Assembly: GCA_002256025.1 (NCBI GenBank)
Contig: NKIB01014332.1
Coordinates: 1-44,707, forward strand
Length of the DNA stretch: 44,707 nucleotides
Source: Asterionella formosa
Lineage: Eukaryota
Reading direction: 5' to 3'
A model generated the notes under the pieces. That model made no database searches and was not told where the DNA came from. It was given only the letters and a program-made list of their open reading frames with translations. Position 1 is the stretch's first letter. Every line of letters begins with the position of its first letter. Of the stretch, positions 1,168 through 37,302 are shown piece by piece. The position numbers were made by a program, and so were the translations under genes.

Positions 1168-1521
1168 TGTCAACAATTATTTGACTGCCTCGTCTATGCC
1201 TGTATTTTTTTACAGGTATTATATAAATCTTGAACAAATGATAAATATTGATGTAGCAAAACATGGTGCTAGTGGATTCTGGATTCCGTCCTCCGTACCT
1301 TCGTCTAGAATACTCCCTACCGGTACCTGGTACCAGGTACCGGTACTTACTTACCCCCCTGGTACCATACCCAATGCTGCATGAATACCGGTAGACACCA
1401 TGGCGGTATCCTTCGTTATTACCGGTATCATGCAACTGATATGGAGTGCCGGTACCGGTAGGCGTTTTGTAATGCCGCACCGCAAATCTGGTTTAGCTCA
1501 AATTCGTTATTGTAAGTAAGT

Positions 1522-2112
1522 ATGTTTGCTCTGAAGTTTTCCACGAAGATGATGTTTATGGCAAGGTGCAGCGACGCACTAAAGACTCGCTCGTTAAGGT
1601 GGATTCACTCGACAGGAATGATGAATCCAACAGCCGCAGAACGAGTGGAACGAGTATTGACTGCCAAGTTGAATTCTGGAAGGACCTACGATGAGATTGC
1701 TACTGCTATTGGTGTTACTAATACTTACGCTGCTCAGCTTATATTGGGACAAGCCAAGTTGACACCCCCTACTGCAATAAAGCTAAAGGAGATATTGCCG
1801 GCCATTTCGGATGAGGACCTGTTACACATGCAAAAGCATTTTCCACTTCGTGGATTTAATGATGATATTCTCAAAGATCCGCACGTGTACCGGACCTACG
1901 AAGCTGTGACCCACTATGGGGAAGCCATCAAGGGAATTATCAACGAGCAGTGCGGAGATGGAATCATGAGTGCCATTGATTTTTATTGCGATGTCGGTAC
2001 AACCACTGGCAAGCACGGGGAAAAGCGTGTGGTTATTACGTTCAATGGGAAATTTTTGCCATTCATTGAACAAAAGTCGCAGGACAATAGTGCCAAAAGT
2101 CCGAGAGACTGA
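1522..2112 (+). CDS. cynS: Cyanase (cyanate hydratase) with N-terminal organellar-type leader
   Basis: N-terminal HTH-like region (TYDEIATAIGVTNTYAAQL), catalytic-domain motifs DPHVYRTYE and GDGIMSAIDF, and C-terminal VVITFNGKFLP. Confidence 0.95.
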   Translation: MFALKFSTKMMFMARCSDALKTRSLRWIHSTGMMNPTAAERVERVLTAKLNSGRTYDEIATAIGVTNTYAAQLILGQAKLTPPTAIKLKEILPAISDEDLLHMQKHFPLRGFNDDILKDPHVYRTYEAVTHYGEAIKGIINEQCGDGIMSAIDFYCDVGTTTGKHGEKRVVITFNGKFLPFIEQKSQDNSAKSPRD

Positions 2113-2292
2113 GAGCGACGTGTGAATTGGATACCATATTTCAATGTAGTTTTGAAGAAGCGAAGAGAAGCTCAGCAAAAATCAATGCAAGGATGTATCT
2201 CCTCTGCCTGTGTAGTCAAAGTATTTCTATCCTCTCGTTGCATAGTTGGCCTAAATGGAGTATTAGAACTACGTGTTTCTCGCATGTTGGCT

Positions 2293-3432
2293 TTACATTG
2301 CTACCGTCACGGATGCCAAGGCAGTTTGACCTGGAACTCCCAAGGCCAAGAGCTTGCCAAACACCACAGCAAAATCCCTGAAAAAGAGTTCTTCATCTTG
2401 GGCATAAAGTTGAACGTACTTTTTGAATCCAGGATCCCAAAGGATGGCCATGTCGCTGTTCATTATGAAGTAAGTTGAAATGACGGGATGAATAAATAGG
2501 ATGACAAAAACTCGTCTTTATTTTCCCCAACTCACCTCGGTAGCATCATCAATGCGCCACTGGGATCTTCGTATTGATCCGGTCCGGTCCATGCCTCCCT
2601 ATCATGTAGCAACTTGGGTGTCCAAGTTTCTTCTACCAATAATCGAAAATACTCATTACTAAATGTCGTTTCACCAAAAGTCCATGGTCCCCAATACCCA
2701 CTTCGGTTCGTATGACATCTCCCCAGGGCATGCGCTCCCAACAATGCTACGATCTCACGATCGTTGAATCCCATGCGGTTAAAAATATCTCGTATATGTT
2801 GAATGGTATTTCGAGGAGAGCCCTTGTCGGCATCTGGAAGTCTCCCATCGGGTGGAGATGTCGCACCAGAATCAAAATCACTTCGACCCAACATGTAGGG
2901 AATTGTAGGACCACCTGCTTCTTCAATTGCAACAACTCCAGCCAAAGTGTAAATGTCTGCATAGGAGAGTGTGGGATACTTTTTCTTGATAGGTTCCAAT
3001 GCATCCCTCGCCACGAGCAATCCAGCGTTGGCACCCCAAATAGCTTCCGGGCTAAATCTCATACGAGCACCATTGGATCCACCTGTCGAGTCAACCGCGG
3101 AATATGATCCACTGCAATGCCACGCTAGACGGACAAATGTTCCAATTAAGGAGGTCCCATCATCACGTTGATCCATGTCAGTATCAATCAAACTAACAAT
3201 ATCGGTTTTTACCTTTTTAAGAAGATTGTTGGAGGGAGATGCAGCCTTGGCATGGGTCGTTTGTGTGTCGATTGCTACGGCGGCGATCGTGAAGGCTGCA
3301 GGTACCAGTCGCTGCGATAAGGTGAGTTGACATCATGGAACATGCACTTCAATTGCTGTTCCGTCCTTCTATCGATGATAGCACTGAACAAGCAACACTC
3401 ACCGCAGCAGTACATCTAGCAGCGTTTAACAT
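2293..3432 (-). CDS. CCP1: Cytochrome c peroxidase (class I heme peroxidase), 3 exons: 3432-3403, 3311-2536, 2455-2293; 322 aa
   Basis: Distal motif VRLAWH and proximal [29 protein letters not shown] is formed across the second splice. GT-AG introns at 3402-3312 and 2535-2456 keep frame (969 nt in total). N-terminus [14 protein letters not shown] resembles a mitochondrial presequence. Confidence 0.9.
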
Positions 3433-3607
3433 GGTGGCGCCTTATGTAGATTTTCTATGAGTACGGTAAAGGGGGGCAGGGGAGGAATCTGCAAGAATTG
3501 AAAAACTATCAGAGTTTGACATTAGCGGTAGTCAAATATATATATTTACCGGTAAACAATTTAAGGCTCAAAAGACTGGGAGGTATCTTTTGATCCAATT
3601 GCTCTGT

Positions 3608-3725
3608 GGTTAAGAAAATAGCATCGATGGCAATAACAAAGTCACAAGGACTGTGGACTCGACTATAGTCCAATGAGTCAGATGGTGCGTTCCGATGTCA
3701 AGAAGCTTCCTAACGAGATTGATTT
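3608..3725 (+). repeat. Putative 5' LTR fragment of a Ty1/Copia element
   Basis: Direct repeat of 7997-8113 with about 18 differences in about 115 nt by manual alignment; shared core GTCACAAGGACTGYGGACTCGACTATA. Confidence 0.7.
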
Positions 3726-3769
3726 TCAACAGTCAAGGAGATTAAGACAGACATTCAGGACTAATACAA

Positions 3770-4030
3770 TTTAAATGCCTGGGATGATGTCAAAACAACT
3801 AACAAGAACAAAAGCAATCAGGCATTCTACAGGAAAGGCAAGTTCAAAGGCCACTGTTGTAAGCATGGCAAGTATGGCCACAAGGCAGCAACTAACTGTC
3901 TCAGCAAGGGTAATAGTGCCAATAAGAAGGAGCTCACTCCTGAGCAGAAAGAAAAGAGGAAGACAATCAAGTGTTTCAAATGCCAATGCATGGGACACTA
4001 CAAAAGTGAGTGCACTACTACATCTAAGAT
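3770..4030 (+). pseudogene. Copia gag remnant with zinc knuckles
   Basis: Translates to GKFKGHCCKHGKYGHKAATNC (degenerate knuckle) and KTIKCFKCQCMGHYKSEC (intact CX2CX4HX4C). Confidence 0.75.
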
Positions 4031-7000
4031 GCCATTTATGGCACTTTATCGAAATTATGTCTAAAGTGAAGTATTTTTGTTACTTTTCCAAACTATAATG
4101 CCACTTTTTTCGGAATTTATCTGGAACAAAAAACAATTTATATGTACTAAAACAAAAAATTTATATGTACTAAAACAAAATTTATTTCACTTATTGAATA
4201 ATTATGTGTTCAAACCAAAAATTCTGTGTGTCAGCAACAATAGTTTTTTACAAACTAGCTATCACAATTGTATAACGAAATTTTTTTGTTGCTCAGTGGC
4301 TATATTATGCTGGTCTCACCACATAATTAAATAGCAAGTCACAAATTCAATTCTATTATTATTTTTACACTTATAAATTGTTTGAATATAAAGTTCAAAA
4401 AAACAACACATTTGTCTGTGCTGACCTGTATTGATGACTTCACAAATTGCCGGTACCATCAATCAATTCTCAGTTGGCTGATAAATAACTTTTCTCATAT
4501 TTTCTTCAACTAGTCATGTTATTGTTATAGTCGTCGTCATATTCGTTGTAGTAGAGCTAGTTTTAAGTTTCGGTTCATAACATTATCATTTTGAATTTTG
4601 CCCCCCTAAATAACATGAAAAATGGGCCATCGGCGACTTCAATTTTCGTCGGCAATATTAGTTAATTATAATAATCCTTTTACGATTGTATTGTCTACGT
4701 CGTGCTTGATAAATGTTCGGAATGGGCAATCGCTGTTCTCAATTTTCGTAGAGATTTCCGCTATTTTCGACATGGTTAAGGCTGAAACGACATGATGCAG
4801 GATGCTCCAACAACCTATCACATCGACAACACTCTAGTGTTTTGTATATGTAAAAGAATCGCTTAATCTCAGCTATCAAATACTACTGTAGCGCTTACAA
4901 GGGATACCTCGCTCGGGTACTGGTACCTGGTACCCCGAGCATAAATCCAGTCATACCTATTTAATTTTTTGTATCTATGTTACTGGTAGTTGAAGGGTCA
5001 TAAATTCGTGGTCCTCATGGTAGACTCGTACAACACTGCAGCCAGACCGCGCCAGTATTTTAATTTATAATATTTTTGTACATTCTATTACCAAATGAGC
5101 ACAGCTGTGTCCACGCCCATTTTTATTTAGTTAAGTATGCATTCCATCAATAGCATCATCCTTGCAGCACATAATTGAAAAATCACGCCAAAAGGAATAT
5201 CGACAATGACAAGGATGGCCTCTGGGTGGTAAGTTTGACGCAATGGTTCTTCTTTCTGGCCTTCTTCTTCTCACACCCATACATCCTTTGTTATTTATAG
5301 ACACTCAGAGACTGAATATTCAATATTAAATCAAGAATGGGGGTCGTTGCGTATTGTCGGCGCAGTTTTGGTATGGTGTTTTTGTTTATTTTCTTGCCTT
5401 TGGTCCATGTTCTCAGTGAGCTTCTACATCTCACACTTCTACCTCAATCCTTAACTGCATCCATTTATGAATGCATTTTCAAGATTCAGATACCATTCAG
5501 TGATGAGTCACACATTTGATAGCGTATCTAGCTGGCACATCAATGAATAAGTAAATGAAAGGTAATGATGATGAATGCAAGAATGTTGATTCAGATAGCT
5601 AATGCAATAATTTCTGATTTTTAAGTTTCACTTTTATTCCCCACTCTAACTATTCTCAGATACTACCACATCCAAACCATTATTGCTTGCTTCTTAGTCG
5701 CATTGATCGTTTCAATCAAGAGGAGCTGATTAACTGAGAGTGCTGCGGTTGTCAGGAAGAAATGAAATGAATACTACCCAAATACAAGCTAGGATTTTGC
5801 AAAATTTCGCCGTTTCTCTATTGCCTTTCTTTGCTGTAGTGCCAGCATGATTGATGCATTGCTAGGAATAAAATTGATTGTACACACTTTAGTCTATTTA
5901 AAACTATTTAGCAACTGATTGTATTTGGTTTGATTCCATTTTTATCTAGAAAATACGTGATTGTTGGGAAAAATATTTGTGGTCATTGATACAGAAATTA
6001 TGTGATCAGACATAAAAAAATTGTTAGTTTGCCCCAAACTTTATATGGGTTTATAAAAAATTTATAGAAGTTGTTGAAACTATTTTAGTTCACTCCTGCC
6101 CTATCACGTATATTTTATGATGCATCACATTTTATATTTTATGTCATACCCTTAAATTATTTTGTAGCCCAATTTATCATAGTGGGCCAGCACCAAAATT
6201 ATTTATTTGGGTGATCTATTTGACTAGCTTTTTTCTGGCAGCTGGCTGTGCCAACAATCGGCGTTGTAGATGTAGTAATAGCTAGTGCATCTAAGAAAAT
6301 TAAAAACGACGAGAGCAATACCACTACACCTGGGCAAAAACCTACCCAGCAGCAACAAAGAAAAGTTCGTCGCCATGTGTGTCGAATTTAATTACAATGA
6401 GGAGGTCCGACCAGCCTTGCTTGTGACATCAAAAATCGCCTGTTATTCGACAGCAGTGTGACAGTCCACATCTGAGCACAGATGTGCACATGATGGAGGA
6501 CAAGAAAAATCATATATTCACTATTGATTTGGGAAAGTTTACTGGTACTTTAAATCAGGAGAGTAATTCCAAAGGGAACAGTGTCTATACTGTCTACTTC
6601 GACACAACACACAGTTCCATGTATGATGATGCGGATACAATTTTTTCCAGTAGCAATCCACTATAATGACAGCCACTCCCTCTATAAACAGTACCATCTG
6701 TAAAGCAGGTTCAACTAATAGCTACTCTGCCTACAGATCCGGGCAATCCAACTTGAGTGCCATGGTGCCCAACATGTTGTTGAACCATGATTTTTCAACT
6801 GCACTGGCAACTAGAAAACAATTTTTCTCAAACAACCAGTACTCTTCCATAAACAACTTTATCGATTTTAGATATGGAAGAACTGGTCTCTTGAGTGTGT
6901 TCCTTGAAAGATGGGATCTCATATGAATGAAGCTGTCGATATGCTCCTGTTTGGAATTTATTTGTTGTATAATGCAAGAGTCTCTGACAAAAGTCCACTC

Positions 7001-7996: not shown

Positions 7997-8340
7997 TGTC
8001 AAGAATGTAACATTGATGGCTGTAACAAGTCACAAGGACTGCGGACTCGACTATAATCCAATGATTCAAATGGTGTGTTCCTGTGTCAAGAAGCTTGCTA
8101 ACCAGATTGATGCTTTAGATCAATCTGACAAAGGTTTGCATCAGCGAAAAGGGAAGACAAAGAACAGGTTCTCAAAGTGTGATGAATGGGATTGAAATAA
8201 GGTTGTGTTTTAAGCTTATAATTAAGAAACAGTGAGAATTGACAGAGTAAGGTCAATAGCGAAAACTAGCAGAAATACTAGCAGCTAAAGATAACATTAC
8301 TAGTAGTACAACAGGTAAGACAAATGTAAGAGGATAACTG
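7997..8340 (+). repeat. Putative 3' LTR of the Copia element (right end approximate)
   Basis: Starts with TG immediately after the PPT; the first ~115 nt repeat 3608-3725. Confidence 0.6.
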
Positions 8341-8906: not shown

Positions 8907-9731
8907 TTAAAGTTCGCAGCCAGCGGCATGAATCATCCCCCATACACCAGCAGGAACCCCCTGCGGTTGCATGAACATTTCTCTCTGCAACAAATTCAAA
9001 ACGAAGGGAGGAGCTAGGGGACTTTGGTTCATCATGAGATTTTCAATTTTGTGCTCAATGATCTTGCCAGACACCGGGTCCAGTCGATACATGCTGATTC
9101 CGTCCAGGTATAAGGGGCGACCCATCATCTTCGGTTCCAGTACCACGTTCCAACTGATACGAATCGAAGAGCGACAAAAATCATAAACCATCCGAATCTG
9201 AATCCGTGAACGACCTTGGCTATAAAACAACTTGGTTAAGGTCTGCAAAAAAGCAAAACTGGCCTTGTAATTCTTCAAGCCAGTGAGTTGCACTCCAGAG
9301 GGATCAAGAACGCTGATATCGTCATGAAATATGGAAAAGTCTGCGACAAGAGTAACGATAAGGGTGAGGATTTATGCTCTTTTTGTCAAGATTCATCGTC
9401 GAGATTCACTGCTTCAATATAGCCGTGAGTTGAACTACCTCGTACCTGGTTGTTGAAACAACATCAAAGGGTAGTCTTTCCGTAGAACATCCATAGCCCT
9501 TCCTAGATTCATCTGAAAATCGGCTCGTTCATCTGCAATATTCCGCAAGAGAGGTGGAAGGTCGCAGGTCGTAGAACTTTCCTGCACCGAAGTGGTTGTT
9601 GGTACATCAAGCAACGACGAACGCAGAGAGAAAGCAACGTCCAACCGATGTGTCCTTGGACCCATGGAATTTTCTTGGAAGGCACCTACAGCTCCAAGAG
9701 ACAGGGTGGACAGAATGGTAAGAGACCTCAT
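8907..9731 (-). CDS. DUF2358 / NTF2-like protein, predicted plastid-targeted, 2 exons: 9731-9446, 9340-8907; 239 aa
   Basis: A GT-AG intron at 9445-9341 joins LRKDYPLMLFQQP to DFSIFHDDISVLDPSGVQLTGLKNYK; later DGISMYRLDPVSGKIIEHKIEN. Leader MRSLTILSTLSLGAVGA|FQ fits a signal peptide with +1 Phe. Confidence 0.8.
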
Positions 9732-10521
9732 AGTCGAAGGAAACACAACAAAACACTTCTTGGTTTGTCGAAAGTGATGGGTGGGTTTGTTTTATGCGAT
9801 TGCAAATTATTTTATCGATTTTGCTACCGGTAGACATGTATGTAAGCATGTATGTACACGGTCGTATATACAAGACTTTCTTACGACTGATTGCAAGAAA
9901 GGACAGAAACGCACGCAGAAACATCGTCAGCGTGCGTTTATAGTTAGCTACAAAAATACATCTGTGTGTAGATTTGGTATGTATGGCTGAACCATTGAAT
10001 TCATTGAATTGGTGGTCAATGATGATGGTTGCTGGTTTTGTTATTGTTGGCGTATGTTTTCTCAGCACGCACTGCCGAAGTTGAAATTTCAATGACGGCA
10101 AATCCAAATCGTACCCCGGATGTGAGACACCAGCGGCTAGTGTGCATGTAAATACCGGTATGCACCACATCTTCGCAAGATATGGAATCAGGAATCTCTT
10201 GTGTTTCAGTCTGACTCTACCACGGGCAATAATCCATACTGTGTATAAATACCGGTATATGTACTTGTGATTCCTGTTCTAGATCAAGCCCAACAACTGT
10301 CAGGTTCCTCTGGTCGATTTGTCATACCGGTAGTCATTTGAGTAATGATGATTGTCAGACAGGTTGTATAATTGAAGTGCACATTGCTATTATTTTTGCT
10401 GAGTCTGATGCACATGTTTGGAGAAACATGAAAAATTGGCCAACTGTTTTGCCGTTACTGAGATATATTTGTGAAATGTATCTCTGTTTGAAGATTAATT
10501 TTTTCTGAAGATACAATAAAA

Positions 10522-10627
10522 AAGGAAAAGGAAATTTTGTCCCCATAAACCTAACCCCTAACCCTTATCTTCAGATGCTAGCTAGGAAGAGCCTACTAGG
10601 GTTAGGGGGACGAAATATCATTTTCCT
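10522..10627. repeat. Imperfect inverted repeat enclosing short CCTAAC / GGTTAG tracts
   Basis: AGGAAAAGGAAATTTTGTCCCCATAA pairs with the reverse complement of TTAGGGGGACGAAATATCATTTTCCT (4 mismatches). Confidence 0.65.
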
Positions 10628-11470
10628 AAAAAAAAATAAAAAAAAATTTGCATTGCTTTTAAGATCCCTTAAGATTACTGGGAGTTTATGGAAACTCCGA
10701 AGTACAAAAAGTCACATACAAAAACTTCGTTTTCTTTAAAATTGACCTCACATCACATTTTTCAAAAAAGACCGCAAAAGAATGCAAAGTTCTCAAAAGT
10801 TCGCAAAAAGACCACAGAAAAATATCGCATATCCGGGTTTCCCGTTCTTTTGTGGTCTTTTTGCAAACTTCGCATTATTTTGCTGTCTTTTCGTTCGAAC
10901 TCTCTCAATGTGATACTGACAGGTATATATGATATCCTGCTGTGTATTGGAACCGATGTTCATATTGCCCCTGGATGTTTCATACCAAATCAGAGCTCAA
11001 ACTCGCTTTGACAAAATGATAGCTAGTCGGGCATACTTTTCGAGAAGTGCGCGAACTTCGCAAAACAAAGCGCAACTAGAATTTTAAACAGCAAGGTCTG
11101 TACATGATACACATAAGGAATCTTCCACATAGTGAGGAGGAAGTACGGAGTTTCCTGTACCTCCCTGCATTTGAAACCCTGGGCAGAAATTAAAATATTG
11201 CTTAGGGTTGCCAAAGTTCCCTGGAATTAAGAATTTATCAGCTATTTTGAATGAGGTGATTCCATTTGAAATATTTAAATCATTGGAAATTTGCAAGTAC
11301 GTACATAGATTCCTTTTCGAATTCGCTAAATATATATAAACATTCCACATCGCTCGATGTATATAGACCCTATAATACTATCAACACATATGTATCAGAC
11401 CATACAAGCTGGCAGCATGGAATGTATTATTGATGAGTATACCGGTAAGAAAACAGTATAACAATCACCC

Positions 11471-11925
11471 ATGAGCGAAATTACACATCACCATGACGAC
11501 AAGGTAGATCCATTCAGCTACAGTCATGAAACATGTTCAACATGTCAAGACCGGATGATTGAAGAGTCAGTGGATGTGGAGGAATGTGAAAATCGCATCT
11601 TCTGCAAATGCTGTGATTTTGTTTGCCCTGAATGTCAGCGCCGATGGGATGAAGTTGATGAGTTGCTAGAAAAGTTCTTTGAAGTTGAATCCTTTCTCAT
11701 CAGATTGAAGGATAAAGACATTACAGCATCAAGAGCCCGCAATTTCCTTTACAAGTTTTCAATGAGAATTTACTGTGGATCATTCTTGGGAAAAGTTGTT
11801 AGGATGGAACTTCCTGACTGTTGATTTAAGCAAGGGGGCTTGATCCCTATTGAAAAAAGGACCCAAACAAAGAGTACACTGGCTTCAAACCTGTTTCCAA
11901 ACGTTCTAAATCTACTAGTGATTAG
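11471..11925 (+). pseudogene. KolX-like (P2X7 C-terminal ballast-like) accessory protein, frameshifted near the C-terminus
   Basis: Cys-rich N-terminus (CSTC...ECENRIFCKCCDFVCPEC), then ARNFLYK...GSFLGKVVRMELPDC and, in another frame from 11860, DPNKEYTGFK. Matches the R..Y...G.LG...R..LP.C...Y.GFK pattern of this domain. Confidence 0.7.
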
Positions 11926-12327
11926 TATATTTTATTTATTTTATTCATTTTAATAGACTATTATACTTCAATGCAAACCAGTACATATGTTGTTTCAAAC
12001 TCATCATCTAGAAATGAGGTGGCATGTATTCTTCTTGTTTTCTCTATTATTTGTTAACATTGTGCTATAAATTAATAGTTAAACACATCAGTAATAACAA
12101 CAAACAACATAGACAACAACAGCAACATGCCGAGCTCCAGTGGTGGCCGTCTTTTATCAGAAACTGGAGTTGATGGTAAGGGATGTCGGAATATAGTCAA
12201 CGAAGAAAATCAGAATTGGCGGTGTCCTACAATCAAATAATCTCCTCCCGCAACAATCGCATCTACCACATCTACCATTCAATCAGCTTTTCAACTAAGC
12301 AGCAATCAAGTCATCAATTATCCTTCA

Positions 12328-21426: not shown

Positions 21427-22398
21427 ACTTCTCGGTAAATAACAGGCGTTGTTTAGTTCAGCCTGCCGCTGTGGTGGGAATCATGCAATGTATGCATGGG
21501 AAACGAAAACCTTTGTTTGCTCCTTGTACATAGAGTAAGTTTACATACGGTACCGGTAGATTGTGAAGCACAAAATATATGCCGGTTTAGATAAGATTGA
21601 TGGGCGATTTCGTCTGTTCTCTACCGTTTCTTCCACTTCCCACCCATATAATGTCGGCATAACAAGGTACCAGGTACCGGTACCAGGGTACCCTGGTACC
21701 ACGTACCAGGTAACTTGTACCCGGTACATAGTGTACTCCGTACCAGTATAGGTATATACCTGTTAATTGCAACCAGACGCTGCCTTTCATGAAGCGCAAG
21801 CTCCGAAAATTCTCCGGCTAATATAATAGCCCTTCCTATTTAAATATTGTTCCGAACCCGATGGTGTATATAATTTATGTTCTAAATAGTCTACCGGTAG
21901 AATTAGATGAACCTGACCTCGATTTATTTTTGGCGCGTTCTTCGTAGAATCGCACCCGATTGGAATATTTGCTCTGGACCCCTTCGTTACCGTGGTAGTC
22001 AATAGACATAAATAAGAATACATGAGAATTTCAGGAAGCCAAAATCAGATGAATAATTTCAGAAATGCTCCTTATTCATAAACGAGGATACATCATCCGA
22101 TTTTCTCCCAGTATCAATTTTCGATCCTTTCTATATCCGATACTAACGAATGCGCGAAACGTTTAGAGGGATGTTCAGAAGAAAGTATGAATACATGATT
22201 ATATAGACTTCCTTTTATAATATTTCAGGGCCGTAGTACTGTATCAAATTGTAACCCGGTTGGCAGGACCCAAATTTGTTTTACGGACTAGCAAAACCTC
22301 GGATAAAATGTGTTGAGAGTAAGTAATGTGCACATGCTGAACACAGCTACAATCTTTTCTTCCAATAGGTTGATGAGAGTGACAGGTATTGAGAAAGG

Positions 22399-23385: not shown

Positions 23386-24109
23386 GTTCATTCATTCTCA
23401 TCAAGGGGATAAGTTCCGCTGATAGACAATCACGAGTGGCACACTGCTGCATCACTTGTAGCCTTCAGCATTTGCAAACTCTCATTCATCCTGAGGTTAC
23501 AAAATACACATTTTTCTTAATTGCATTATTAAATGATTGGCTAATAGAAACTATTCTACACGCCCTTACTGTGTATTATGGTGGAGCAAGGTTATCGGTA
23601 GGTGCTCTTCGCAAAGTTTGATTCCTATCGTTGAAGCAATATTATCTATAATGTATATTCATGCCGGATTATATAGAATCAAACCAAAATAAGATACCGG
23701 TAAATACCGTTATAGCTAATTTTTACTTGTTTCTGTGACTTCTCATTCTTGGTGACAGTGTGAATCAAATCGTGTTCTTGAGCATCATGTATTTACTCGA
23801 ATGTATGCGTCATAGTACAGATATTATGTCGATCACGCATAGAAATAAATGTCCAGCCATGAGTGCATTATTCTGTGACTCGCCGGATTCGTCGGGAAAC
23901 AATTTTAAACACGTCAACCTGTTCAGAATTCTTGGATCACATCAAATATACCGGTTGTACTTTATACCGTATACCGGTATATCGGTGATCTGAATGCCTA
24001 AACATACAACCAAATCTTTTGATAAAAACCTTGCAGCTAGATATATATACCGGTAGTTGCGGACTAGCAAAATTCATGGGACAGATGCACCCTGTACTGA
24101 TATTTTCTC

Positions 24110-26202: not shown

Positions 26203-27123
26203 GATGTTGCTGGAATTGAAGTATGCACTGTAGGAAATGAATCTGTTCGTAAGTGTTGGCAATGTATTCCCGACTGTAAGTGTGTAGCACCATCAAATCG
26301 GAAACCGTAAATGTGCCGATATCATATACTGGTGGTATATGATATATACATGTATGAGTAATAACAGAGCAAAACAAGGGTCAAGGGCGGATGCGGCGAC
26401 AACGACAAAAGCAATAATTCCACTATGATATTCTACGTACCGGTACATACAGAACATGCAGGTTATATGGCATACCGGTGCCTGGTACATAGCTGCCGGT
26501 ACCAGGTGGAGGCTACATATGTAAGCGCCCAGTGAGCTCTGTTCAACTGGTTTTTCCCTCGGAAACCAGATTGTTTTTCCGATGTATTCGCAGAAATTGT
26601 GATTATTGACGACGTCATTCGGTCTGTCGTTGCTGCTTGCTACTTAGGAGTGGATAGCTAAGGTGTGCATACATACCGGTAAATAGCTGCCGGTGTTATA
26701 CTCGTAGGTAAATCCTAATAGATTCTTTCGTTGATGTAAACAACCACCGGGCGCCCTGCTCATATACTGTGTTCAAATAAGGTTGGAGAAAATACCTGGA
26801 CTAGGTATTAGAGTGTTGGAACTATTATAGATAGTCTACTGTACCAGGCACCACCGGTTTATACTGATCTGACCATATATTTTATCCATACCGGCGTATG
26901 GCTGCCTTCACCACTATCGGTATCCCGGTACCTTTATCTGGTATCTAAGAAACTATCAGTTGATGACGACATGACAAATCTATACCGGTCCGCCATCACA
27001 TTCTCCGCAACAGCCTTTGTCCATTGCACCTTCAATTTGATTTTACTGTGATCTCCTTTATCGACGCTCGCTTGGTCACCAATACAACACAAACTCATCG
27101 AGGCAGTGAATGTCTGGGAAGGA

Positions 27124-29748
27124 ATGAGAATAAGTTTTCTAAGTTCCGCGTTGCTCGCACCATCATTGTCGTTTGCCTGGACACTGGGTCCTTTTGCGAG
27201 ATCGTTGAAGTCGCCCACGAAACTGAAAACCCTCCACTCCACACCCTTTGAAGCCGAATATTACAGTGGAAATGCATTTACGGAAGCGAAAGAACCTCTT
27301 GCCGTGTCAGCCGATACTAAACTAGTCTTTGGCATAAACAAGTACTCGCACGATACCAGTCTCTGTGCTGCAGATGCTGCATCAGGCCAAGTCCTGTTCT
27401 ACATGTCCAAGGAGCGGTTGACTCGCAAAAAACACGACTCGGGAAATGTGGCTTCATTGGTAGAGAAATGCTTGGATGTTCTGCAGTTGGATTTGGATGC
27501 AGTCGAAACTGTTATTGTCAACAATCACCACCATCGACTGCTACCGCTGGAGGCATCGAAAGAACACATGGAGTGGGAATGTGGCCTTGTCATCAACAAT
27601 GGATCAGAAGAAGGCTACGACGACGAAGAAAACATCTTGACAAACGCCAAAAAGTCAGAACTATCCCATCACTTGGCTCATGCATACTCCGCAGCGACTC
27701 AAGCACCGTTTGATAGGGGCATGGTTGTAGTCATGGATGGGATGGGAGAAACATATCGAGCCATGGCACGCGCAGAATATTTAGGCGACACAGCATATAC
27801 TTCAGATCTTTCATTTGGAGAATCCACATTCCAATGTATTCCCTCCAATTTGAAGGAGCTCTCCATGTACAGTCACTTTGATTTTCGAGAATCCGAGTCC
27901 GTCTACGTCTTTGAAAAGAAAGAAAAGACCATGGCAATTAGGCCGGTCTTCAAACGATTTCAAGAAGAAAATTCTCCACCAGCATTGTACAATCATGGCT
28001 TTGAAAACATGGACAGTGTGGGGGCCCTCTACTCGAGAGCATCCTCGCACATTTTCGGAGACTGGAATGCTTGTGGAAAGGTAATGGGATTGGCACCATG
28101 GAAAGTCCACTCTTGGACAGACAACGATGACAACGATCTAGAACCCTCCTTACATAAAGATTCCATTATGTGGGGATCTCTTTATTCAGAAGAAGAAGAT
28201 CACAAGTTTAAATGTGATCGAAAACTACTTATGGGGCTGCCCCATTTCGCTCGAAATGATCCAGACCTTTTTGACTCGTACACCATGGTCCGGAAACGGC
28301 GGTATGACTTTGACGATGACGAAGGTGACGGAGAAAAGGAAGCCGAAGAGGCAAAGAAGCGTCTGCCTGCAAAGGTGGCATTGGATGCCATTGCCTTGGC
28401 GGCTCGAATTCAAGATGATTTGGAGGTTGTGTGTATAGATTTCGTTCAACACTTTAAAGAACAAACCGGTGAGACCAATCTCTGCTTGGCGGGTGGTGTA
28501 GCGCTCAATTCTGTTTTGAATGGCCGCCTCGCTCGTGAACTTGGATTCGAGCAAACTTTCATTCCTCCTTATCCTGGGGACGATGGTATTGCCATTGGTT
28601 GCTGTGCTTATGGTTTGTTTGGAAATGAAGCCCTGGACAAGGCCAAAGGGTCGCTTGCGCAAGTCTGGTCCACACCTATTTCACCATATTTGGGGCCAGA
28701 TCAAACCGATTTTGATATTAGACGAGCAATTGAAGCTGCTGCTCCTTGGTTAGACGTGGACACGATTCGAAACGAAGATCGCAAGGTGCAGCTTATTGCT
28801 GAAGAAATCGAGTCCGGGAGTGTCGTGGCATGGTATCAAGGACGATCAGAGATAGGGCCCAGAGCTTTAGGTCATCGCAGCATTCTAGCAGATCCCCGCA
28901 AAAAGCGAATGGTACGTTTCATTAACGAGAAGGTTAAAAAACGCGAGAGTTTCCGCCCATTTGCCCCTTCAGTACTAGCAGAGGAGGCAAAAGGCTGGTT
29001 CAACCTTGGAACAACAGAGCAACCAAATGTTAGCCCATACATGGGCATGACAGCCTATGTCTACGAAGACAAGCGATACCTGATTCCCGCAGTGACCCAT
29101 GTTGATGGTTCGTCTCGTCTCCAAACTGTCACCAAAGAAGCCGAGCCACTATATCACAAACTTATTTCAGCCTTTTTCGCTCTCACTGGTGTGCCCATGG
29201 TCCTCAACACATCTTTCAACACCCTCCCGAGCGAGCCAATAGTCGAAACTCCTCAAAATGCAATTCGCTCGTTCCTTTGCTCGATGGGTTCCATCGATAT
29301 CCTGGTCATGGGTGATCATGTCATCAAACGGAAACCAGTGAATCTTCGCACTCTGCTTGGTGAAACCCGCAAAGAGGATGAAGTATTTTTGACCCTGCCA
29401 ACGTGTCCTGTTCGAAGTGGATCAGTATCCTTTGAATCCACATTTCGCCTAAAAAAAGGTGCGACGAACGAAGAGGAAGTCGAAACAGTCACAAGAGTGC
29501 TTATGCCGGACCGTCCCATGCACCATGATACAGCTAACTCATGGTTTACCCTGACGGATGAACTGGAAGGTGAATTGCTTTCCATCTGTGACGGATCGAA
29601 TACGCTGAACGACATGGTGGGCTACTTCACAGCACGGTCTGAGGACGATGATTTTTCAAGTGACGACATGGATGATGGTGAAGTGATTTTCAAAGAAATT
29701 ACTCGACGTTTGGTTCGCTTACACGAACATAGTTTTATAAGTTGGTAA
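27124..29748 (+). CDS. NodU/CmcH/TobZ-family carbamoyltransferase, predicted plastid-targeted (874 aa from ATG 27124)
   Basis: Kae1-like domain motifs HDTS, SHHLAHAYSA, DGMGE, GKVMGLAP, LAGGVALN, GDDGIAIG; YrdC-like domain motifs QGRSEIGPRALGHRSIL, KRESFRPFAP, THVDGSSRLQTV, LNTSFN. Leader MRISFLSSALLAPSLSFA|W. Confidence 0.92.
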   Translation: MRISFLSSALLAPSLSFAWTLGPFARSLKSPTKLKTLHSTPFEAEYYSGNAFTEAKEPLAVSADTKLVFGINKYSHDTSLCAADAASGQVLFYMSKERLTRKKHDSGNVASLVEKCLDVLQLDLDAVETVIVNNHHHRLLPLEASKEHMEWECGLVINNGSEEGYDDEENILTNAKKSELSHHLAHAYSAATQAPFDRGMVVVMDGMGETYRAMARAEYLGDTAYTSDLSFGESTFQCIPSNLKELSMYSHFDFRESESVYVFEKKEKTMAIRPVFKRFQEENSPPALYNHGFENMDSVGALYSRASSHIFGDWNACGKVMGLAPWKVHSWTDNDDNDLEPSLHKDSIMWGSLYSEEEDHKFKCDRKLLMGLPHFARNDPDLFDSYTMVRKRRYDFDDDEGDGEKEAEEAKKRLPAKVALDAIALAARIQDDLEVVCIDFVQHFKEQTGETNLCLAGGVALNSVLNGRLARELGFEQTFIPPYPGDDGIAIGCCAYGLFGNEALDKAKGSLAQVWSTPISPYLGPDQTDFDIRRAIEAAAPWLDVDTIRNEDRKVQLIAEEIESGSVVAWYQGRSEIGPRALGHRSILADPRKKRMVRFINEKVKKRESFRPFAPSVLAEEAKGWFNLGTTEQPNVSPYMGMTAYVYEDKRYLIPAVTHVDGSSRLQTVTKEAEPLYHKLISAFFALTGVPMVLNTSFNTLPSEPIVETPQNAIRSFLCSMGSIDILVMGDHVIKRKPVNLRTLLGETRKEDEVFLTLPTCPVRSGSVSFESTFRLKKGATNEEEVETVTRVLMPDRPMHHDTANSWFTLTDELEGELLSICDGSNTLNDMVGYFTARSEDDDFSSDDMDDGEVIFKEITRRLVRLHEHSFISW

Positions 29749-29837
29749 ATATATCCGAACGACGACTTGATAAATGTCACAGTCTACACGTGTGTCCCTT
29801 CGCGACTCTAATACACCTACAATAGTTTTTTAATATT

Positions 29838-30622
29838 CTATCGGACGAGACCAAGTGTCTTTACAACGCGACGAAAACTCTCGAAATCTTTGCGTTCCAT
29901 GTAATCCAAAAGCTTACGACGACGGACATACAAGGCAGCCATACCACGCTTGCAATGTTGATCTTTGCGATGAGTCTTCACATGAGTTTGAAGCTGTTGA
30001 ATGCGCGTCGTTAATGCAATAACTGTGGTTGGAAAATGCCACGGTGAGATTACAGTTTGCGTGTCGACCGCGCCAGTTCCCCTTCGCTACAGCCAGACTT
30101 AAGCAGCGAAGTGCACTTACCTTGCACAGCACTAGAGCCCGTATCACCTTCTCTCAATTGAAACAATTCCATTCCGCGCTTCTTTTGCACCGAAACCACC
30201 TCCTTCTGCGACGCATTTGACAAATTGAAGACTTTGCGTACCCGGTCACTCATTGTCAGGCCAGTGAAGCTGAATCGCAACGGCTCTGGGTCAGCTTCCT
30301 TTTCCACCATTCGCTTGTGAAGTTCTTGCGATGCCACCAAATCCGCATTTCTTGCTTCGGCGTCTCGCACATCGCGGGAGACAGCATTGATAACGGGCAA
30401 ATCTTTCGGCATGTACCTGTTGGGTTTGGGAGGCAGAATTCCCCTTGCTAGATTTGCAGCCTTTTTGGCTTTCTTTTCCTCCCGACGTCGTTTGGTCTTC
30501 GTCCATGCAAAAGATCTGCTCTGAAAGTTATCGATTAAATTGGTAACAAGAGGAGGCTTGGCTAGCCCAATGGAAGGACGACCGATGCCGCGAACAAGGG
30601 CTGAAAAGAGCGTCATGGCCAT
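29838..30622 (-). CDS. MRPS15: Mitochondrial ribosomal protein uS15, 2 exons: 30622-30121, 30022-29838 (start could be 30616)
   Basis: A GT-AG intron at 30120-30023 joins GDTGSSAVQ to VIALTTRIQQLQTHVKTHRKDQHCKRGM...RRRKLLDYMERKD...LGL (S15 signature). Arg/Ser/Leu-rich presequence. Confidence 0.9.
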
Positions 30623-33600
30623 TACTATTTCTTTGTCCTGCATGCATTGTACCTATAAAGGCTACGTACACAAGTCCATTGCAAGGTACAAGGTGCAAGA
30701 CGACAACAGGGTACCAGGGAATCTGGTACCAGGTACCACCACGAATCATTTTACACGCGGTGTTAGATTGCCTCCTTTGATGTGCACAGTACGATATTTT
30801 GCGAGCAATTCCCGCTCCAGCTATCGTCTTGCCACTCGGGTACTTCTTATTCACACCCTGAATTTTAGGTCAAACCGACACCTAAAAAATGGTCAGTACA
30901 AAATGTGCACACGAGAACGACTTCAACCTCGGGCGGACCACATCCATCCATACCTAATACAGAAAGTACTGATAATACGTTGCAGGGCGGAGCAGATGAC
31001 AACAAATATTGTAACTATAGTATACACACAATATGTTCATACTATCACTTCATTTCAACCTCAACCAAATGATAGAATGTAGATGAAATGAATAGCTAGC
31101 TATTAGTAGTGTCAGTACTACTTGTTCTGTTGAAATTTGTTGACAACATTCAACAATGGCCTGATTCTTCGGTTGACTGCTTGAACCAAACTTATTCCTT
31201 TGTTCATTTCAATAACTACTAGTAGCAATTCATTAGCATCAAAATTTCAAAATCAGAGTTTCGATGTTAACATTGTAGTCTTTAGTAGTAGATTTATCCA
31301 TACTGCTAGCAAGTTTGAATGATCTTGTTGGCTGCACATTGTGAGTTTAACTTCATGCACTCCTTGCATCGCTCATGAAGCCTCAATGATAGGCTTAGTC
31401 TATGGAGCGAGTTCAATCATCTCTTAAATCCATCAAAGAATCATGCTATTTGTGTGAATTTTTAACTACCCTGCTTTATCAGCTTGCAACAAATGGTGGA
31501 CCCTCAGTGACAAATTTGCATGACATAGTGACAGGGAATCCAGAAAGTTTCTTGATTCAATTCAACTTGAAGTCGGTAATTAATTGACGAACACATTCGA
31601 AGGCTTTTTTCTAGCAATAAGAACTGGGTGGTAAATCGATGATAGTTGGCAATCAATTGGGCTTGAATTGGCAACAAAACGAATAAGTATGACTCTATAC
31701 TACTACTGTAGGCATGGATGGTAAACAGAATAAATCAGACAACTACATAATCAAACGCACATTTTCATGGCTGTCATGATATCTAGTTATTGACATTCTA
31801 TTTTAAAATCACATCCACACATGCAACGAGCTGTTAAAATTGTGGTCGCATTACCAGCATGCAACTATCACAAGATTCTACTACAACCTGCAATTTTGCT
31901 GCATACTAGCTGGTATTTCAGAGATTGACGAGACAGCATGGACTTCGGTTGATTGCTGCGATAATCGATTGTCGCTTCATACAAATGAGCAAATCCGTAG
32001 CTAGCAATGACAAAGGTGAGCCATGGCAAACTGTAGACCGATCATATGGTTTCGCAATAATTAATGACAAGGACAAAGAAAAGTTCATGCCGACAAGATT
32101 CTACAACACACCAGTACGTACTGACATGAATGTATACGCATCCATCAGGTACCAATTACCTGGTACCTTGTACCGGTATTAATACTCCATAATATCATAG
32201 TAAGTCATAAATACCGTCCAGTATAATTCTCAATTTACCTACCGGTACCTGGTACATCAATGCTCCATGTCTGGTATCAGGTACTACCTGGTACCAGTAC
32301 ATCCAATTCATCATGCATGTACCAACCTCAAGCTAAGTTCGGTATGAACCATCAGAATCCGTCATCCGTTTTACACTGTACAAAAGTATTGAATACAGCA
32401 AGTCATTATTAGGTTTTCACTGAAAAGGAAGTTTAACTTTGTCTGTAGCCTTGTACCAACATTTTTCTGTAGGACGAGAAAATATTCTAAATCATTTCCT
32501 GAATTTGGTGCGGAATAACCTAAAATGACCCTAAGGGGCAATTAATTTAACCTAAAATTCCCCACCTTCTAAGTAATTTTTAGGCCGTAAGTAATTTTTA
32601 TTTAGGGGCAATAAGGGGCACATCGAATTTTTCGGCATTAAAATTACCGATTTTTAGCATGACAACCAGAATAACGGTAATATGCATGGAGATGGTACAA
32701 CAAGCGTAAAACACATGAGAATGATTGTAACAACATGCAACATCAATGAAAATTGAACATGATGTTTGGAGCAACCAAAGTATGAAATGCGATGTAAAAA
32801 GTTGCATCAAATAAGAAATAGAAAAAATTGTTTTGGGTTAGAAATGAAGTAAAAATAGGAGTTTCAATGCATTGTGAATCATTGTAGTACTTACACAGGC
32901 AACATTGCTTGACTTTCCATCACCACACAATCGACGACCGAAAGAAGAAGAAAAAATGCTGAACCCAATTTAGACCTGCATCGTTATGTAGCGTAAATGG
33001 TCTGGTTGCTGCAACCATGCGCATCGCTGTAGTAGCCTGACACCAGTAGCAGTATTTTCGCCACAGTCATCATTCCTCCGGCCACCAAACAAGCAACCCT
33101 GATCATTCCATTCTGAGAAAACATGATCGCCACGCTGCACCAGCACTATTGACTCTCTCTAGCTGAGTATTTATGTAGCTTGTGATACGAACTCATAGTA
33201 GAAATGTAGCAAAGTGCGTTATTACAAGAAAAGAATTGCTTGGCGGCAATATTGACATCATGGTAAACGACTATACACATCATCAACACTATGTCGTCAA
33301 AGAGTAGTCATCGATAAATACATTGGCGCTTATGTCGATAGATAAGATAGAAACAAAATGACAGTGTGGAACGACAAAGGACGACGGAAGCGATCAAAAC
33401 GGACCATGGAAGCAATCAAATCGGAACTTCGACAATTTTGTATCTACGATCACATTCAGTGTTTCACTGTTGTACTCACCGATCCGCTCTAACAAGCGTA
33501 ACACACAGCAGACGATGGGCTCATAAGAGAGTCGAAAGTTACTGTTGCAAGCCCAAATTGAGCAACGGCAGGCAGGATAGAGTGAGAATCATAATTGTGA

Positions 33601-34804: not shown

Positions 34805-34877
34805 AATTTGCTGATAATGACTAAAATTTGCTGACTATGAATAAAACTTGCTGACAATTACTTAAATTTGCTGACTT
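34805..34877. repeat. 20-bp minisatellite, about 4 copies
   Basis: TTGCTGA recurs at 34808, 34828, 34848 and 34868. Confidence 0.8.
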
Positions 34878-34899
34878 GTATAGACATCAACGACTGGCA

Positions 34900-35560
34900 G
34901 TGCTGGTTTGCAACGAGTTGTCTTGCCTTTTAGAGTGCCAAAGTCAGGTCCGAAATTTTTTTGGCAATCTTGATATCATGGGTAGGCATATGATTGTTAT
35001 TAAAAGTATTCATATGAATTATTAACTTGAAATCATTAGTAATCAATGGCATGCCCAAAGCGTGACTTAGATCACGAGCTTGCTTGGCTCTTCCTCTCAA
35101 ATTGAAATTGAGTGTAGTAGAAAGTTTTGTTTTCATGACAAAATGATAATCTGTTTTATAGTAGCCCATTCCTACTCCTTTTTCAAGAGGGCAAGTATTC
35201 ATTTTGCTGCCTGCCGACAAGACCTGTACTTCCCTAGTTTTGTTTGCATGGTAGGTGCGTCCCCAACCACCCTTCACGAAATATGATCATCTTAGCCACA
35301 GCGTTAGGGGAAACTCCGACCGCCTAGGAAGGCGGCACAAGCTGCTTGTAGGGGGTCAACCCACTAATTCTTGCACACCAGGCAAGACCGTGCGGGACGG
35401 TAAGGAGTGTGGGAGTCGAACCCTACAAAACCTCACAACCTCAGATCAAAGACAACGGCTGTGCTTAAGCAACTACCATGAGCCATTCCCTCGTCTTTTG
35501 GTTTCATAAACAGTATTTAACATTAGGGCATTTTCAGCCTTCATAGATTTAGGAGGCTTT
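34900..35560 (-). pseudogene. Diatom Copia-type pol fragment (pre-integrase region), interrupted by the SINE-like insert
   Basis: ALMLNTVYE on one side of the insert, and ENKTFY...RAKQARDLSHALGMP..DFKLIIHMN..DIKIAKKI on the other, resemble the region preceding integrase in diatom Copia elements. Confidence 0.55.
35137..35495 (-). mobile_element. Candidate tRNA-derived SINE (359 bp)
   Basis: Minus-strand head with A-box-like TGGCTCATGGTAG (35485-35473) and B box GGTTCGACTCC (35422-35412). Flanked by TTTTGTTTTCAT (35125-35136) and TTTTGGTTTCAT (35496-35507). Confidence 0.65.
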
Positions 35561-36058
35561 AATATTTGTAGTTTCATTCTGACTATTTCAAAACAAACAG
35601 GCTTGTTGGATCCACTGTCCGTTGCCTCAAACCTGATTAGCGTGTGTGTATGTGCACTGTCGACTTGTTTACATTACAGGAGTGACTTAGCTACTCAAGT
35701 GCGTGTTATAATATCATACTCCTTAGTACAATGCAGAATACTACAGTTCCCAATCATCTCATCATGATTGATAAGGATAATGTGATATCACGATAGGTTT
35801 ACATCGATGCATACATCACCAAAGTATGATACGTAATATTGAATAAAGTATATCACATAACTATGATATCTTGATCATAGAACTATGATGATTTCTTAAA
35901 ATGTTTATGATATAATTTTGATCAAAATATGATCATGTTTAAATAATACAAAGATTGACATTCTTTCTTACAGTACCTGCAATTCGCGAACTATAACCTC
36001 AAACTTACATGTTCACACCAAAAATTCTTGGTCATTAAAATAAAACTCACAACCTTTG

Positions 36059-36610
36059 TTACAATTGATGGATCATTTCAATTTTAGCTAAGCGGGAACG
36101 ACGTTCTGATAAGGCTGCTGAAATTGAAGATTCTTGATAACCTGATATGGACGAGTTTTGAACCAAATTACGACCTTTGTAGTGATTGAGTTCATTGACC
36201 AATTGATAATATCCTTTGGCAAGTGCAAAATGTTGTTCCATCAGTTTGTCATGGACTTGTTGGTCCGTGCGATTAGAAAATTTATGATATGGTACCATGT
36301 TGTCCATCTGCATCCGGGAGTTATTAATGGCATCATCGAAAGGAGCCATTTTTCTTGTATCAACAACTGAAAAAGAAACGTCAGCATCGCTTTCTGTGTC
36401 AATTACGGGATCCTTTGTACTAGTAGCTGATGGTGTCCCCATCGACGATGGGGTAGTACCCCAACTAACTCCCTGTCGCCGATTGGGTTCCTTTGGAAAA
36501 TCGCAAGACATTGCTTGTACTACTAGATGATTGCTGTCGTTCTCTTCCTTAAAGTTCGGTGATCTTAAAATCAGGTGTTGCAAGCTACAATGAAATGAAT
36601 CATCAGCCAC
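36059..36610 (-). other. Unassigned open frame (up to 183 aa), possibly transposon-associated
   Basis: Long open frame in AT-rich surroundings with a Ser/Thr-rich middle and a helical-looking C-terminus; no recognised motif. Confidence 0.25.
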
Positions 36611-36718
36611 TACATATAATATTTTACGCTGTCTAGATATGATACCATAAAACCAACAGTGCTCTTTACATTATCGTATACAAAATCAGAACCGAGTTTG
36701 AGTCATAGCATATCTTGT

Positions 36719-37302
36719 TTTCAATTATTCAATTATACAATCTTAAAAATATGATGATTTACTGTCCCGCTGCAGTAGCAGCAGTCATGAACATTTGGCG
36801 TTCTATTGCTTGCTTACTACTCTGACTACTCTCTTTCAATTTTACGATCATACGATCCTGAAACTATGATGATCTACTGTCCCGGTGCAGTAGCAACAGT
36901 CATGAACATATGGTGTTCTATTTCTCGCTTACTACTCCGACTATTCTTTTTCAATTTTATGATTATACAATCCTAAAAATATGATGATTTAATGTCCCGC
37001 TGCAGTAGCAGCAGTCATGAACCTATGGTGTTCTGTTGCTTGCTTACTACTCTGACTACTCTCTTTCAATTTTACGATCGTACAATCCTAAAACTGTGAT
37101 GATTTGCTGTCCCGCTGCAGTAGCAGCAGTCATAAACGTATGGTGTTCTATTGCTGGCTTACTACTCCGACTATTCTTTTTCAATTTTATGATCATGCAA
37201 TCCTAAAACTATGATGACCTACTGTCCCACTGCAGTAGCAACAGTCATGAACAGATGGTGTTCTGTTGCTCGCTTACTACCTGGTACTCTGACTACCTGG
37301 TA
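36719..37302. repeat. 115-bp tandem satellite, 5 copies
   Basis: TTTCAATT unit starts at 36719, 36834, 36949, 37064 and 37179; conserved core GTCCCGCTGCAGTAGCARCAGTCATGAAC. Confidence 0.95.

Follow-up and report, generated by a model that had tools for sequence, protein, structure and literature searches.

Genes of the window and distribution of the word

We analysed a stretch of 44,707 nucleotides from the diatom Asterionella formosa (GenBank assembly GCA_002256025.1, contig NKIB01014332.1, positions 1 to 44,707 of the forward strand), referred to below as the window, whose intergenic DNA carries the palindromic word TACCGGTA both as single copies and in chains of short units joined by shared TA steps. 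Genes were assigned with Pfam, and an intron at 25432-25556 as well as approximate transcript limits were read from RNA contigs. Among named sequences, those closest to the SLY1 protein come from diatoms (Astrosyne, 72%; Fragilaria crotonensis, 70%), and the public runs containing the stretch are freshwater and algal samples. The genes and gene fragments are as follows.

1-1176, minus strand: actin-related (ARP6-like) gene
1516-2109, plus strand: cyanase (cynS)
2535-3332, minus strand: peroxidase
8910-9371, minus strand: DUF2358 gene
12655-13343: Mutator-like transposase fragments, frame-broken (Pfam PF20700, E 8e-10 and 4e-11)
15115-21480, minus strand: ASCC3/Brr2-type helicase
22393-23067, plus strand: cyclin
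24113-26292, minus strand: SLY1
27052-29745, plus strand: carbamoyltransferase
29841-30086, minus strand: MRPS15 (Ribosomal_S15, E 4e-20), with its first exon at 30121-30652

The word is strongly over-represented. The 44,707 bases contain TACCGGTA 22 times, against a mean of 0.25 and a maximum of 2 in 100 dinucleotide-preserving shuffles of the window (0/100 reach 22), an excess of about 90-fold, and TACCWGGTA is present 11 times against 0.15 (0/100 shuffles reach 11). Under an order-3 Markov model of the window, TACCGGTA ranks first among the over-represented 8-mers, with 22 copies observed and 0.96 expected. GGTACC is found 27 times, and 22 of the 29 occurrences of ACCGGT have T before and A after them. 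In total, the window holds 33 full units, all of them bounded by TA on both sides and all either palindromes or odd-length near-palindromes with a central A or T, in either orientation; this form alone proves no duplication event. Most copies of TACCGGTA (17/22) are isolated, with no neighbouring copy, and duplicate nothing nearby. The flanks of these 17 sites show no consensus (at most 0.46 bit), so the 8-mer itself is the unit. The 12 one-mismatch classes of the word, pooled, are also in excess (28 vs 7.0 expected), and 10 of these 28 copies are TACCAGTA/TACTGGTA, the C-to-T product at the central CpG. TAGCTA (20 vs 6.7) and CTAGCTA (14 vs 2.5) are likewise abundant, mostly in repeat-like parts (e.g. 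31093-31102, 33778, and 40046). Two possible meanings of the words were dropped: that the cores are restriction or methylation sites, because any short palindrome is the site of some enzyme, and that they share a Z-DNA-like alternation, because TACCGGTA and TAGATCTA do not alternate between pyrimidine and purine.

The window was divided, approximately, into four classes, the coding class being defined by Pfam open reading frames (ORFs), RNA contigs, and a codon score, and the copies of TACCGGTA fell into them as follows.

Coding, 15.5 kb: 0 copies, density 0
5' flanks, 3.9 kb: 15 copies, 3.85/kb
3' flanks, 1.46 kb: 3 copies, 2.05/kb
Other non-genic, repeat-like DNA, 23.65 kb: 4 copies, 0.17/kb

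The density in 5' flanks differs from that in repeat-like DNA with P = 4e-10, and 5' and 3' flanks do not differ significantly (P = 0.43). All 33 full units fall outside coding DNA. The CpG-decayed forms TACCAGTA/TACTGGTA are distributed differently, with one copy in gene flanks and nine in repeat-like DNA, which gives intact-to-decayed ratios of 18:1 and 4:9, respectively (Fisher P = 2e-4). A lack of methylation at the gene-flank copies, selection on them, or both would be expected to give such ratios.

An earlier note on this DNA, made from the letters alone, had described the chains as missing from coding exons and concentrated upstream of genes. Both of its example chains (1318-1345 and 21668-21712) read exactly as it gave them, every single site and cluster that it listed is present, and the counts above show an enrichment, over shuffles and Markov model alike, and bear out the absence from coding DNA. 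The upstream concentration holds for the clusters near the ARP6-like/cynS pair, the ASCC3-like helicase, SLY1, and MRPS15, but does not extend to the three sites between the convergent cyclin and SLY1 genes or to the clusters at 32148-32300 and 37278-37383, which lie in repeats.

Architecture of single sites, chains, and repeats

The sites and clusters of the window are listed below in order of position.

1318..1346: chain TA-CCGG-TA-CCTGG-TA-CCAGG-TA-CCGG-TA in the divergent ARP6-like/cynS spacer, with TACCGGTA at 1318 and 1338; 1318-1345 is a perfect 28-bp palindrome (self-match 100%)
1386..1460: three more TACCGGTA (1386, 1420, and 1453) in the same spacer, the one at 1453 reading CCGGTACCGGTA
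3547..3554: single TACCGGTA, ~215 bp upstream of the peroxidase ORF (minus strand)
4911..4941: GGTACC(T) array (4916-4934) within a ~30-bp palindrome whose arms take in non-unit flanks; non-genic, repeat-like DNA
9825..11447: five single TACCGGTA (9825, 10153, 10250, 10325, and 11440) upstream of the DUF2358 gene
21551..21558: single TACCGGTA, ~70 bp upstream of the ASCC3-like ORF
21662..21727: longest chain, a period-7 array and a 57-bp imperfect palindrome, with TACCGGTA at 21675
21892..21899: single TACCGGTA in the ASCC3-like/cyclin spacer
23695..24055: three TACCGGTA (23695, 23972, and 24048) in the convergent cyclin/SLY1 3' spacer
26438..26988: divergent SLY1/carbamoyltransferase spacer, with exact TACCGGTA at 26438 and 26674 and partial copies at 26472-26505, 26889, 26925-26932, and 26981-26988
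30710..30737: GGTACC/TACCAGGTA cluster, ~60-120 bp upstream of the MRPS15 ORF (minus strand)
32148..32299: clusters 32148-32178, 32240-32254, and 32285-32299, with TACCGGTA at 32171 and 32240, inside a ~1.7-kb repeated segment (30843-32566)
37278..37383: two TACCTGGTA and one TACCGGTA (37376) bordering a 115-bp tandem repeat, in highly repeated DNA

Some RNA contigs end within ~120 bp of sites. The contig of the ASCC3-like gene stops at 21556, inside the site at 21551; another ends at 26990, just beyond ATACCGGT at 26981; and a third ends at 26317, 121 bp from the site at 26438. The last of these (23892-26317) carries the SLY1 coding sequence and continues past its stop codon over two sites (23972 and 24048). 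The DNA at 9825..11447 has no coding signal, the ORF at 9610-10278 giving a codon score of -0.02.

Tandem Repeats Finder resolved the chains into period-7 arrays (1318-1346, 4.5 copies; 4916-4934, 2.9; 21665-21727, 8.9; and 32157-32178, 3.3) and returned a period-8 mini-array at 23963-23986 (3.1 copies); head-to-tail copies are thus a property of the chains only and not of the 17 single sites. The palindrome of the longest chain (21662-21718, 57 bp) matches itself at 86%, including the non-unit flanks ACAAG/CTTGT. Because the paired arms here and at 4911-4941 extend into bases outside the units, whole segments, and not single units, were probably copied in inverted orientation, and the reach of the dyad symmetry into these flanks fits a duplication of neighbouring sequence. 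When folded as single strands and compared with shuffles, the 1318 chain, the 21662 chain, and the 4911-4941 array gave hairpin z scores of -4.7, -3.5, and -4.5, respectively. This architecture points to local direct and inverted duplication, and slippage combined with inverted duplication of the TACCGGTA site offers the best explanation for the chains. That the clusters might be copies of one dispersed repeat was rejected, as a self-BLAST of the window found no flanks in common.

Part of the window is repeat-rich. Between ~30760 and 40700, the summed contig depth in three DNA runs exceeds that of the unique (single-copy) part by factors of hundreds to thousands, and for this reason the clusters at 32148-32299 and 37278-37383 are placed in repeats and not in a gene promoter. 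Many contig joints in the sequencing runs skip ~1.72 kb (30843-32566), and the ends of this segment share an inverted GAATTTTAGGT-like word. The whole interval looks like a nest of high-copy repeats without a Pfam-recognisable protein; the 115-bp tandem repeat at 36719-37280 (4.9 copies, 86% matches) has inverted partial copies near 38760-38810. Elsewhere, two 115-bp direct repeats (3609-3723 and 7998-8111, 85%) lie around 4.3 kb of low-GC DNA, in which 3765-4061 gives a weak zinc-knuckle match; the bracketed stretch might represent an old long terminal repeat element. A telomere-like word, CCTAACC, is repeated 2.1 times at 10550-10564 in an intergenic stretch, and the last 2-3 kb of the window (42000-44000) show a strong C-over-G skew (-0.30).

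Related words in other diatoms and in oomycetes

As relatives, we used metagenome contigs with a SLY1 alignment, which gave 80 loci (labelled L below) and 450 kb in total. In these loci, TACCGGTA was found 20 times against 2.5 expected, and 14 of the 20 copies are in L053/L054, which belong to one species. The class made of TA, a G/C-containing 4-bp palindrome, and TA was then counted in 27 non-redundant sequences, with the following results.

Window: observed 29, expected 6.45
L054: observed 72, expected 2.9
L052: observed 43, expected 3.8
L004: observed 10, expected 1.6
L010 (marginal): observed 6, expected 1.45

The other 22 of the 27 sequences were at expectation, and the same cores with other outer dinucleotides gave ratios near 1 (0.6-1.9). 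In L054, the favoured words are TAGATCTA (32 copies), TACATGTA (25), and TACCGGTA (9), which share chains; in L052, they are TATGCATA (32) and CGAGCTCG (8); in L004, TACTAGTA (6). When the other diatom loci are pooled, CTAGCTAG leads the palindromes (26 vs 1.4). Every intergenic spacer of L054 and L052 is filled regardless of gene orientation, and local non-tandem direct or inverted copies of 13-22 bp are seen; the L054 spacers (5252-6548, 11407-12324, and 13570-14157) are all occupied by TAGATCTA, TACATGTA, TACCGGTA, and TACGTA at 20-40/kb.

The neighbourhood of SLY1 itself offers some further observations. The SLY1 promoter of another diatom (L052:615-1100 and L056:1575-2060) is saturated with chained TATGCATA, TACGAGCTCGTA, TACTAGTA, and TAGCTA. 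In L054, a TALE (Homeobox_KN) gene adjoins SLY1, and the TALE class is the one proposed by Seidl et al. as the TACATGTA binder. Between the window and L001, the closest relative found (88% protein identity), a ~30-bp block at 23878-23908 (AAATTGTTTCCCGACGAATCCGGCGAG-like, minus strand) alone is well conserved within the SLY1/cyclin 3' spacer, and it may be a 3'-end signal because it lies at the SLY1 RNA contig end (23892).

Closely related loci differ by whole units. L052 and L056, from two metagenomes, are 98.2% identical across 2.6 kb with five indels, and in three of the five, one locus has a bare TA where the other has TA, a unit (CGAGCTCG, CGAGTCG, or CGACTCG), and TA. CGAGTCG and CGACTCG are mutual reverse complements, paralleling the CCAGG/CCTGG pair of the window. 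Part of a 10-bp insert between these two loci is an inverted copy of a word 7 bp upstream; since, in addition, the imperfect unit gained in L056 is already present 73 bp upstream, templated copying explains the indels as well as excision scars would. Small indels that make or break palindromes were also seen in L028/L030, and no indels were found between L053 and L054.

The word of the window is also an oomycete promoter motif. Roy et al. included TACCGGTA (M94) and TACATGTA (M93) among the high-confidence palindromic motifs of Phytophthora infestans promoters, in which M93 occurs 4150 times (PMC3597505); ATACCGGTAT lies upstream of 206 Plasmopara genes and was equated with GTACCGGTA of Seidl et al. 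(PMC10031896); and PsMyb37, a single-repeat MYB-related protein of P. sojae, binds TACATGTA in yeast one-hybrid and gel-shift assays (PMC11134190). These reports uphold the suggestion of the earlier note that such a word can serve as a regulatory site. The window word equals M94 exactly and is over-represented upstream of genes (15 sites in the 3.9 kb of 5' flanks vs 4 in the 23.65 kb of repeat-like DNA). Neither a CCGG nor a CATGTA word appears in the main text of a binding-array study of P. infestans (PMC11267843). Our literature searches, which covered part of the matching literature, returned no diatom report of TACCGGTA, and the lineage-specific behaviour of this stramenopile motif class is undescribed as far as that literature goes.

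Possible origin and role of the word

The best single reading, in our view, is that TACCGGTA is a protein-binding palindromic word amplified by local duplication, a choice that we make tentatively and that falls short of probable. It is preferred because the 8-mer is exact and free of flanking preference, lies at gene boundaries and is better preserved there, is identical to an oomycete motif, and has a sister word with a binder; the RNA contig ends that fall in or close to sites speak for it as well. Under this reading, TACCGGTA would be the word that this diatom has amplified from a class of TA-bounded palindromes shared among stramenopiles, and it would be recognised by a dimeric sequence-specific DNA-binding protein, possibly MYB-related like the TACATGTA binder of P. 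sojae. This protein might mark unmethylated open DNA at gene boundaries, mainly in 5' flanks and also in 3' flanks, acting like a general regulatory factor and not like a stage-specific switch. The chains would not be rows of independent events and may instead have grown by replication slippage between shared TA steps combined with fold-back inverted duplication.

Several observations weigh against this reading. Unit length varies in the window (CCGG, CCWGG, and CCAGGG), for which a fixed dimer geometry gives no explanation. Among the 27 sequences, clear enrichment of the TA-bounded class is confined to the window, L054, L052, and L004, with a different favoured core in each, and a conserved factor would not predict that the core switches between diatoms. 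The convergent 3'-3' spacers of L054 (5252-6548 and 11407-12324) hold ~20 units/kb, equal to its divergent promoters, and three sites of the window lie in the 3'-3' cyclin/SLY1 spacer; these three are missing from L001, which overlaps the intergenic DNA of the window only at this mostly unalignable spacer. The gain or loss of a whole unit plus TA in L052/L056 looks like the work of a mutational module, unlike ordinary binding-site turnover. Finally, a binder of TACCGGTA is reported neither in the available parts of the oomycete literature nor in diatoms. The switching of words, the equal 3'-3' density, the variable unit length, and the whole-unit indels together keep a mutational origin alive, and it is important to note that the origin of TACCGGTA and its present function need not coincide.

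One such origin was put forward in the earlier note, which took the units as candidate footprints left by the excision of a single element with CCAG...CTGG ends. In its general form, a TA-duplicating cut-and-paste element would insert at TA in open, gene-near DNA and leave TA, some end bases, and TA on excision, a product that is automatically a TA-bounded palindrome, as it derives from both inverted ends, and some scars may later become binding sites. The units have the right form, with TA on both sides of a palindrome or near-palindrome, and the excess is specific to the TA boundary: placed between other outer dinucleotides, these cores stay near expectation in the four enriched sequences (ratios of 1.2-1.9). 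The cores differ between diatoms as different element families would make them differ, isolated sites copy nothing nearby, three of the five L052/L056 indels are unit plus TA (none of them at TATGCATA, though TATGCATA units are four times commoner), and the one-ended forms TACGAGTA/TACTCGTA are 4-fold enriched in L052. We nevertheless consider scars an unlikely source. No inverted-repeat element with TA-CC...GG-TA ends was found in the 44.7-kb window, where terminal inverted repeat scans gave only motif-driven matches (e.g. 21551/21899), and none with matching ends was found in L054 (21 kb). Among 147 ORFs of at least 55 amino acids from the non-genic DNA of the window, none carries a Tc1/mariner/pogo domain, and only the Mutator-like fragments (12655-13343) and the weak zinc knuckle were matched. 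One-ended scars are the common product of the Tc1/mariner-type elements that have been studied; in the window, they are at background (TACCTA/TAGGTA, 14 vs 16.7; TACCATA/TATGGTA, 9 vs 8), and neither the 3+3 nor the 4+4 products of CCAG...CTGG ends occur (TACCATGGTA, 0; TACCAGCTGGTA, 0). With no element, no transposase, and the predicted scars absent or at background, the single-element origin finds no support in the window. Six or more hits on neighbouring TAs would, moreover, need an unexplained hot spot, the 20-40 exact octamers/kb of L054 demand very many events with no element in view, and the CGAGTCG gained in L056 is already present 73 bp upstream, which suggests copying. The earlier note had itself granted that slippage or template switching would be favoured if the units always copied adjacent sequence; the chains, being tandem and inverted duplications, behave in this way (period-7 arrays and two larger palindromes with non-unit flanks), and the isolated copies of TACCGGTA do not. 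The scar interpretation therefore stands unproven and, for the chains, disfavoured. In Phytophthora, Seidl et al. named taCATGta as a rare Tc1 excision footprint of Caenorhabditis elegans and rejected a Tc1-scar origin of TACATGTA because the motif is conserved and abundant (PMC3520976).

Contigs of the sequencing runs X6 (from another study), X8, and X16 (~1-2% divergence) were compared with the window. X6 contigs match gap-free across 21551, 23695, 23972, 24048, and the start of the long chain, and an X8 contig does so across 23972 and 24048; the X16 pieces, among the matches listed, are confined to coding parts. Another X8 contig, covering 21138-21668 and thus the interval with TACCGGTA at 21551, is 6 letters longer than the window, which is the length of CCGG+TA, somewhere within that interval. 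Among the DNA contigs listed, many stop at motif sites (21668, 21701, and 26445).

The word could also be a self-propagating palindromic simple sequence with no primary protein recognition, whose hairpins or cruciforms stall replication or break, so that slippage at TA steps and templated, partly inverted copying multiply whichever unit a lineage holds. The tandem arrays, their hairpin scores, and the palindromes running into unique flanks agree with this, as do the filled spacers of L054 and L052 whatever the gene orientation, the local 13-22 bp copies, the palindrome-making indels of L028/L030, and the lineage dependence of the favoured unit; the excess of one-mismatch variants (28 vs 7.0) about equals the number of exact copies (22), which fits steady creation and neutral decay. 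We regard it as rather unlikely all the same, since 17 isolated exact 8-mers are hard to produce by slippage, a sequence specificity favouring one word ~90-fold would be needed, the density is 20-fold lower in the repeat-like non-coding DNA of the window, and the same word is enriched in distant oomycetes (PMC3597505). Very improbable, in our opinion, is that the units themselves move as minute palindromic elements, duplicating TA on insertion, and form a nuclear counterpart to the GC clusters known from yeast mitochondria. The presence or absence of unit plus TA in L052/L056 and the boundary dinucleotide shared by singles and arrays would suit such elements, and there is a precedent in the GC42 cluster, which is palindromic, 42 nt long, and sporadic among strains, duplicates AG, and merges and shuffles (PMC4478555). 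However, units of 4-8 bp are far below the size of any known mobile element (GC42 itself has 42 nt), no mechanism is known, and the data do not separate this idea from scars or templated repair. A wider possibility, conceivable and still doubtful, is that in some diatoms, and by extension in oomycetes, the commonest words of gene flanks did not evolve as ordinary binding sites and that a mutational machine writes TA, a short palindrome, and TA into open intergenic DNA in whole-unit steps, through TA-transposon scars or hairpin-templated repair, with each lineage having its own word, later adopted by factors such as MYB-related proteins. If so, both TACATGTA, the commonest Phytophthora effector-promoter motif, and TACCGGTA would have an origin in mobile DNA or in repair.

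To our knowledge, little has been established about the architecture of diatom promoters. Should a single exact 8-mer mark the majority of gene boundaries in a common lake diatom, it would offer a direct handle for its binding factor and for synthetic promoters, and the switching of words together with the whole-unit indels provides a testable system for the birth and spread of regulatory words. It also reopens a question that had been dismissed for Phytophthora, namely whether TACATGTA-type motifs are former transposon scars.

Compared with the footprints of Tc1/mariner-type excision, the units share flanking TAs around a few extra bases, a palindromic form, and the unit-plus-TA indels of L052/L056; they differ in that no donor element or transposase was found in the window, one-ended scars are unenriched there, and the chains are local duplications. 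The chains resemble micro- and minisatellites of self-complementary units, being head-to-tail period-7 repeats with strong hairpin potential, whereas 17 of the 22 copies of TACCGGTA are isolated single units. The sites of yeast general regulatory factors are short exact words at nucleosome-free 5' and 3' gene boundaries, with a dominant word that changes by lineage. Short, abundant, lineage-dependent words at both gene ends are likewise seen here, the diatom side of the parallel being drawn from sequence, and TA-linked chains set the diatom words apart from those of yeast. With the GC42 clusters, the units have in common palindromy, duplicated dinucleotide flanks, a sporadic presence between strains, and composite arrays; those clusters are mitochondrial, with a structured stem of 42 nt, and the units here are nuclear and 4-8 nt long, lengths of tens of nucleotides (28-57 nt) being reached by whole arrays only. 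The oomycete motifs M94 and M93 (the latter, TACATGTA, also known as motif-1 and AM-20) were found through expression classes and are common across Phytophthora species, whereas the diatom word varies, is missing from most diatoms, fills 3' spacers, and forms chains; what the two systems share is the identical 8-mer of M94, perfect TA-bounded palindromes enriched upstream of genes, and a stramenopile host.

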